Source of the DNA: Escherichia coli
GTDB lineage: Bacteria; Pseudomonadota; Gammaproteobacteria; Enterobacterales; Enterobacteriaceae
Assembly (NCBI RefSeq): GCF_024502345.1
Contig: NZ_JALDNN010000001.1
DNA length: 64,000 nt
Strand: one strand, 5' to 3'
Numbering within the stretch: position 1 is the stretch's first letter; the number at the start of each line of letters is the position of its first letter. Shown here piece after piece: positions 12,128 to 13,254 of this stretch. Position numbers and translations under genes: made by a program. Under the pieces are notes generated by a model. The model was not told the DNA's origin and ran no database searches. It saw nothing but the letters and a program-made list of their open reading frames with translations.

Positions 12128-13254
12128 ATGGCCAGAAAACCTAAAGAAATCAAAACAGACCCGTTAGAGGTCATCCTGTGGAAAGCGGCTGACAAGCTAC
12201 GTAAGAACATTGATGCAGCCGAGTACAAGCATGTCGTGCTGGGCCTGATTTTCCTTAAGTATATTTCTGATTCTTTTGAATCTCATTATGAGTTGCTGAA
12301 GGCTGGTGAAGGCGAGTTCGCAGGCGCTGACCCGGAAGATAAAGACGAGTACACCGCTTACAACATTTTCTTGTCCCTGAGCTTGCACGCTGGAGCTATC
12401 TAATATCTAAGGCAAAGCTACCAGAAATCGGTAAGCTGGTTGATGATGCTATGGAGCTTATCGAAGCGGGTAACCCACAGCTAAAAGGTGTGCTGCCGAA
12501 AGTCTACGCTCGCCAGAACCTCGACGCAACTGTGCTGGGTGAACTGATAGATCTGATTGGCAACATTGCACTGGGAGATGCCAAAGCGCGTTCTGCTGAT
12601 GTATTAGGCCACGTATTCGAATACTTCCTTGGTGAATTTGCACTGGCAGAAGGCAAACAGGGCGGTCAGTTCTATACGCCAAAATCCATCGTAAGCCTGC
12701 TGGTTAACATGCTGGAACCCTATAAAGGCCGAGTCTTTGACCCTTGCTGCGGTTCCGGTGGTATGTTCGTTCAGTCAGAAAAATTTGTTGAAGCGCATCA
12801 GGGAAATATTGACGATATTTCGATTTACGGTCAGGAATCCAACCAGACCACCTGGCGTCTGGCAAAAATGAACCTGGCTATCCGGGGTATCAATTCAGAA
12901 CACGTCCGCTGGAACAGTGAAGGCTCATTCCTTAACGATGCCCACAAAGATCTAAAATCTGATTTTATCATTGCCAATCCACCGTTTAACGTGTTTGACT
13001 GGTCCGGTGAGCAGCTTCGTGGCGATGCCCGTTGGCAATACGGTATCCCACCTACCGGGAATGCTAACTTTGCCTGGATGCAGCATTTTCTGTATCACCT
13101 GTCGCCAAAAGGTCAGGCTGGTGTTGTACTGGCAAAAGGGGCTTTAACAGAGGGAATATCGGCGGCAGCGGGCATCGTTAACTTAAGATACAAAAGATGT
13201 CCGGAAATGGAGGGGCAAGATCAGTTTAATAATATCTCATCAACTCTCATGTAA
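12128..13254 (+). pseudogene. hsdM: Type I restriction-modification methyltransferase subunit HsdM, frameshifted near 12365 and C-terminally truncated
   Basis: N-terminal [54 protein letters not shown]...; second frame carries [14 protein letters not shown] (SAM motif I) and IIANPPF (motif IV); the frames join via ...[21 protein letters not shown]...; only ~90 aa follow NPPF; no hsdS or hsdR nearby. Confidence 0.7.

Follow-up and report, generated by a model that had tools for sequence, protein, structure and literature searches.

The M subunit of a type I restriction-modification (R-M) system acts only as part of an M2S complex. M subunits without S do not bind DNA, and type I systems are sorted into the families IA-IE by comparison with a prototype (sequence similarity, complementation or antibody cross-reaction), the prototypes being EcoKI, EcoAI, EcoR124, StySBLI and KpnBI (PMC3874165). 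In enteric bacteria the hsd locus classically maps close to serB (PMC3874165), whereas the module described here is island-borne. It was found in a 64-kb stretch of E. coli DNA (hereafter the window), in which the initial annotation had read a frameshifted and 3'-truncated type I hsdM pseudogene, orphaned from the rest of its system, at 12128-13254.

When 11900-13400 was compared by megablast with 5,426 complete RefSeq E. coli genomes, matches were obtained in 356 of them, all stopping at query position 1246-1250, which corresponds to 13145-13149 of the window; in 314 of the 5,426 at least 80% of the query was matched, which takes the match out to this breakpoint. The best match was E. coli PapRG-04-4, to which 11236-13149 aligns at 99.5% identity with a single gap. 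In this strain a 515-aa hsdM (WP_032343002.1) is followed by hsdS (WP_032343003.1, 383 aa) and then hsdR, in an island that adjoins ssrA and begins with an integrase, a recombinase and two ParB-family genes, and an 'integrase core domain-containing protein' pseudogene (locus L001, 11748-12017) lies directly upstream of hsdM. In a PDB sequence search the best match of the intact allele was the solved M subunit 3khk (E 1.6e-142), and the allele belongs to the same domain family as EcoKI and EcoR124, with lower similarity to the M subunits of EcoR124II (E 4.8e-40) and EcoKI (E 6.7e-18); by sequence it is distant from EcoKI (family IA) and EcoR124 (family IC), these being the two families whose prototypes were compared. 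As a separate observation, the hsdR of PapRG-04-4 (L001, 14983-18222) carries an internal stop and is a pseudogene itself, and therefore the type I module is decaying independently in other lineages.

Up to residue 341 the window copy shares its HsdM_N and N6_Mtase architecture with the intact hsdM of the ssrA island, and the IS3-family remnant upstream is also the same. It differs in that codon 82 has lost 1 bp, the gene breaks off after codon 341 of 515, S289F is present, and hsdS and hsdR are missing. Alignment, Pfam and tblastn thus agree with the initial annotation on a frameshifted, truncated and locally orphan relic of a type I R-M system. We conclude that 12128-13149 (Table 1) is very probably a non-functional remnant of the hsdM of an hsdMSR module, inactivated by the frameshift in codon 82 and by a deletion reaching into an IS element.

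Table 1. Position of the hsdM remnant, its parts and the neighbouring elements in the window.
Feature	Position	Strand	Remarks
sce7725 family gene, split	N-part 8636-9082, C-part 6973-7428		cut by IS3 and IS1
IS1	6210-6977		cuts sce7725 family gene at 6977/6978; without target duplication
IS3 splitting the sce7725 family gene	7416-8673		1258 bp, TGT target duplication
sce7726 family gene	9089-9991		looks intact
IS3-family transposase C-terminal remnant (rve domain)	11647-11916	-	annotated pseudogene equivalent in PapRG-04-4
hsdM relic, 5' two-thirds of a type I hsdM	12128-13149	+	base-by-base alignment to intact allele
hsdM codons 1-81, original frame	12128-12370	+	first part of HsdM_N; then 10 codons out of frame, stop at 12401-12403
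Frameshift site, codon 82	12371-12372	+	TTT in intact alleles, TT in window
hsdM codons 83-341, shifted frame	12373-13149	+	rest of HsdM_N and first ~60% of N6_Mtase
IS3-family tail	13150-13223	+	74 bp from the end of a 1333-bp element (its positions 1260-1333); joined to hsdM inside the IS
AT-rich DNA flanking the IS insertion, upstream of the autotransporter gene, with the stop of the fused ORF	13224-13317	+	94 bp
Autotransporter gene	13318-16506		1062 aa, AIDA/MisL-like (NCBIfam), intact; begins 94 bp past the IS end

Lesions and coding content of the hsdM remnant

The remnant is read as two consecutive open reading frames on the plus strand, 12128-12403 (91 aa) and 12451-13254 (267 aa). 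Pfam analysis of the 91-aa ORF led to a match with HsdM_N (PF12161; E 9.5e-14, profile 3-48 of 135), and the 267-aa ORF matched N6_Mtase (PF02384; E 6.5e-70, profile 2-191 of 311), while the intact allele covers 4-135 of 135 and 2-311 of 311 of the two profiles respectively. Both ORFs also match the hsdM model of NCBIfam, below its cut-off as expected for fragments. Motif I (DPxxGSGG type) was read from the sequence at 12739-12768 and motif IV (NPPF) at 12976-12987, so that the claim of a type I hsdM with methyltransferase motifs holds well beyond chance: HsdM_N is present, though its remainder sits in the shifted frame, and N6_Mtase is present with motif I and motif IV. The catalytic domain and its two motifs speak for homology and not for integrity; the complete catalytic domain and C-terminal region in one unbroken frame that a functional HsdM has are not found here. 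An AlphaFold2 model of the intact HsdM from an 8-sequence alignment reached a mean pLDDT of 30.7, and Pfam profile coverage was used instead.

Base-by-base alignment to the intact allele revealed one single indel, the T missing in codon 82 opposite 12472 of locus L001, and the frame change suspected near 12365 is real, with its exact site a few bases further on (Table 1). A tblastn search with HsdM was accordingly split into residues 1-82 and 81-350 in two frames, and restoring one T at codon 82 gives back the intact reading NIFFVPELARW. Phase variation or programmed frameshifting was considered and rejected, as the tract merely changes from TTT to TT and the gene is truncated regardless. The second lesion is found where hsdM homology breaks off sharply, at 13149/13150, the end of codon 341. 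It costs 174 aa, inside the 150-200 aa estimated initially, and with them the final ~40% of the N6_Mtase profile and the entire C-terminal region. The annotated end at 13254 is correct as the stop of the fused ORF (13252-13254), but the last 34 codons (13150-13251) run through the IS tail and are unrelated to hsdM. In a comparison with six intact alleles, the remnant showed a private substitution, S289F at 12995, adjoining motif IV (0 of 6 intact alleles), and also N90S, within the stretch that has become out of frame, K72 being the common allele.

Searches of the 64-kb window by tblastn with the HsdS, HsdR and HsdM of the island confirmed that neither hsdS nor hsdR is nearby: the best scores were E 4.6 for the cognate HsdS and E 1.9 for the cognate HsdR, residues 342-515 of HsdM gave no match with E <1, and apart from the remnant itself all matches had E >1. 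Neither the adjacent hsdS nor the hsdR of a type I operon is therefore present in the window, and the remnant is an orphan locally, within these 64 kb.

The truncated product of 267-283 aa might still be partly active as a solitary methyltransferase, as a SAM-binding protein or as a subunit interfering with a related type I enzyme, since ORF 12451-13254 is unbroken with motif I and motif IV, and NCBI names its equivalents 'HsdM family class I SAM-dependent methyltransferase'. We consider such activity highly improbable, as the catalytic profile is covered to ~60% (2-191 of 311), the C-terminal 174 aa are missing, S289F adjoins motif IV, no Shine-Dalgarno-like sequence was seen by eye before the ATG at 12451, and the S subunit required for DNA binding is not encoded in the window. 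No data pointing to a function of the remnant were seen. With ~40% of the catalytic profile and the C-terminal region gone, no S subunit and a broken frame, the remnant would be unable to methylate DNA and, judged from its sequence, is expected to have no residual function. For annotation this means that the locus should be called a pseudogene and not 'type I R-M subunit M' or 'SAM-dependent methyltransferase', and in methylome work no m6A motif should be attributed to it.

The hsdM-IS junction and the proposed deletion

Many E. coli records contain IS3-family elements whose ends match the DNA to which hsdM is joined. The full element was found in E. coli ABWA45 with a length of 1333 bp and the terminal inverted repeats TGATGTAGCCCC... 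and ...GGGGCAAGATCA; 13150-13223 is 98.6% identical to its positions 1260-1333 and comprises the final 37 nt of the transposase gene and the right inverted repeat ending GGGGCAAGATCA. Therefore, of the earlier reading that the relic is cut at about 13.2 kb where the autotransporter segment begins, the cut stands, but its partner is this 74-bp IS tail, and DNA from upstream of the autotransporter gene follows only from 13224 on. A 21-bp match beyond 13223 in one plasmid copy of the element was dismissed as chance similarity, the IS ending at 13223.

No microhomology was detected on either side of the 13149/13150 join and no IS terminus lies at it, the break being internal to the IS. As hsdM is joined at a point inside the element and without microhomology, the junction is best explained as a deletion scar and not as a simple insertion. 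We propose that the 1333-bp IS3-family element originally lay 94 bp in front of the start codon of the autotransporter gene and that a later deletion extended from nucleotide 1260 inside the IS to codon 341 of hsdM. This event would have removed the last 174 hsdM codons, all of hsdS and hsdR, most of the IS and anything between, while the 1-bp deletion in codon 82 would part the N-terminal 81 residues from the rest. Among complete E. coli genomes, neither an intermediate in which the full 1333-bp IS and the autotransporter lie behind an intact hsdMSR nor the IS-tail/autotransporter junction alone was found.

The IS3-family transposase remnant on the other side of hsdM (11647-11916) is also present upstream of intact hsdM in other E. 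coli and therefore belongs to the ancestral hsd module. A derivation of this remnant and the downstream 74-bp tail from one IS, which could have pointed to recombination between two copies, was ruled out, as they share no DNA similarity.

Recurrence of the lesion-bearing block

The 91-aa product is on record on 161 public contigs and the exact 267-aa product on 44, including E. coli UMEA 3052-1 and several assemblies of 4.7-5.1 Mb. EQW25485.1 from UMEA 3052-1 is the exact 91-aa product, and EQW25484.1 from the same strain, 267 aa long, clusters at 90% identity with the 267-aa ORF of the window; these two and WP_252382783.1 show no substantial difference to the window and represent the same allele. 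The public names are 'hypothetical protein', 'HsdM N-terminal domain-containing protein' and 'HsdM family class I SAM-dependent methyltransferase'. The locus is thus a pseudogene of a known kind, and public databases already contain fragments of this allele, labelled with generic names.

From NCBI isolates, ENA gut metagenomes and Logan SRA assemblies 18 loci were retrieved, representing ~15 different assemblies. Frameshift, truncation and the IS-tail/autotransporter junction were present in all 18, with 0-1 differences per locus across hsdM and the junction (12128-13330). The loss of a single base in a short run of T is an error type of some sequencing platforms, and the frameshift could in principle be a sequencing or assembly error, with the locus then being a single, still truncated HsdM fragment. 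This is exceedingly improbable: the T run has just 3 bases, the same TT recurs in the 18 loci from all three sources, identical 91-aa and 267-aa ORFs occur on the 161 and 44 contigs, and 174 codons would be missing even without the frameshift. An assembly error, which the initial annotation had named as the finding that would overturn the pseudogene, is thereby set aside.

The block has at least three left-hand contexts, namely uxuA-gntP-IS1, RES and sce7725/7726 genes, and, in one locus, a pair of OLD-TOPRIM and UvrD-helicase genes. Another locus (L017) shows the ssrA-type backbone itself, 99.86% identical to the intact island over 7 kb and with the same exact breakpoint. The lesion-bearing block hence arose once and recently and is now found in several island contexts including the uxuA-leuX interval of the window; the lesions probably originated in an ssrA-type island, from which the block was carried into the others. 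As the near-identity of the copies reflects recent common origin, it is no evidence for or against selection on the remnant.

Instead of a deletion scar, the junction could mark the breakpoint of an inversion or translocation, with the 3' end of hsdM, hsdS and hsdR lying elsewhere beside the rest of the IS3-family element. Internal points of hsdM and of the IS are joined without microhomology, so a reciprocal product is conceivable, and inspection was limited to 64 kb, so that the rest of the genome may contain the hsdM 3' end or a complete type I system. We regard this as quite unlikely, since tblastn detected no distal hsd parts in the window, no second piece lies close to the block, which stays unchanged across at least three contexts on its left side, and the island shows repeated IS-adjacent deletions, with IS1 and both IS903 copies lacking target-site duplications. 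The deletion thus remains the preferred reading, and the locus may illustrate how IS-associated deletion wears down a defence module on a genomic island of E. coli. The hsdM-IS junction was found in none of the 5,426 complete RefSeq E. coli genomes, yet it is unchanged in isolates and gut metagenomes, and 13149/13150 could therefore be a lineage or island marker.

The autotransporter and the surrounding island

As the hsdM'-autotransporter block moves as a unit in all 18 loci, the remnant might be kept because its promoter and 5' region serve as a transcription leader of the autotransporter gene, which would be compatible with its being a pseudogene. In 11900-13500 a single sigma-70-like site is found on the plus strand, at 11947-11974 ahead of hsdM, and from there to the autotransporter ATG this strand contains no site resembling a terminator. 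Against this, promoter-like matches were not in excess (3 compared to a mean of 2.4 in shuffled sequence), the co-travel is accounted for by recent common descent, and the same autotransporter is found elsewhere with no hsdM, in the tRNA-Phe island of three complete genomes, where a different IS3-family element ends 16 bp from the ATG. Retention for such a role is therefore doubtful, and slightly more so is the stricter version that promoter and untranslated hsdM remnant have been co-opted as an expression leader of the AIDA-like autotransporter; if true, co-option would explain why the block of hsdM', IS tail and autotransporter moves between islands as a unit. The two different IS arrangements upstream of the autotransporter gene indicate that this region has been struck by IS elements more than once.

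Within the autotransporter gene, 12 tandem copies of CCTGACAAC (a Pro-Asp-Asn repeat) were found at 15457-15566. Among related loci the length of the product ranges from 1047 to 1089 aa, and in other loci the gene is split by frameshifts or interrupted by IS elements, which suggests variation in repeat number and frequent inactivation.

The island part of the window extends approximately from uxuA at 5440 to a tRNA-Leu(CAA) at 20282-20366 and contains IS1, the IS3-split sce7725 gene, the sce7726 gene, the hsdM remnant, the autotransporter gene, IS903, a DUF6387 gene and a P4-type integrase. From 5.4 to 20.3 kb, every ORF could be assigned except one of 133 aa at 10534-10935, for which no family match was found. 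Outside the island, the size and order of the ORFs suggest core chromosome, with ORFs that we take to be yjgR, lptFG, pepA, valS, argI and mgtA as on the K-12 map. On the same map the classical hsd locus near serB would presumably lie past the left end of the window, and fim and fec, which we would expect between uxuA and leuX, appear to be absent.

Together, uxuRBA, the decayed island, the hsdM remnant and the autotransporter gene lie between two IS903 copies (277-1333 and 16544-17600), which are 1057 bp each, 100% identical and inverted relative to each other. No 9-bp target-site duplication was detected at either copy, in direct or exchanged configuration, and both probably took part in adjacent deletions or rearrangements. 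An inversion between them was rejected, as uxuRBA has kept the orientation to leuX that it has in K-12 and exchanged target duplications are missing.

Next to uxuA, gntP (5743-5981) appears to be internally deleted: with the intact gntP beside uxuA in locus L013, only the 58 nt at its start (to 5801) and a 3' segment (5856-5981, 88% identity) can be aligned. The sce7725/sce7726 family pair has decayed within 6210-9991, while related loci contain an uninterrupted pair together with a RES-domain gene. On a metagenome contig (L008, 2588-6461), an OLD-TOPRIM/AAA gene and a UvrD-helicase gene, a pair that we take to be Gabija-like, lie to the left of an identical hsdM'-autotransporter block. As this pair occupies the place of sce7725/7726 in the window, the DNA to the left of ~11114-11236 behaves as a variable slot for defence genes.
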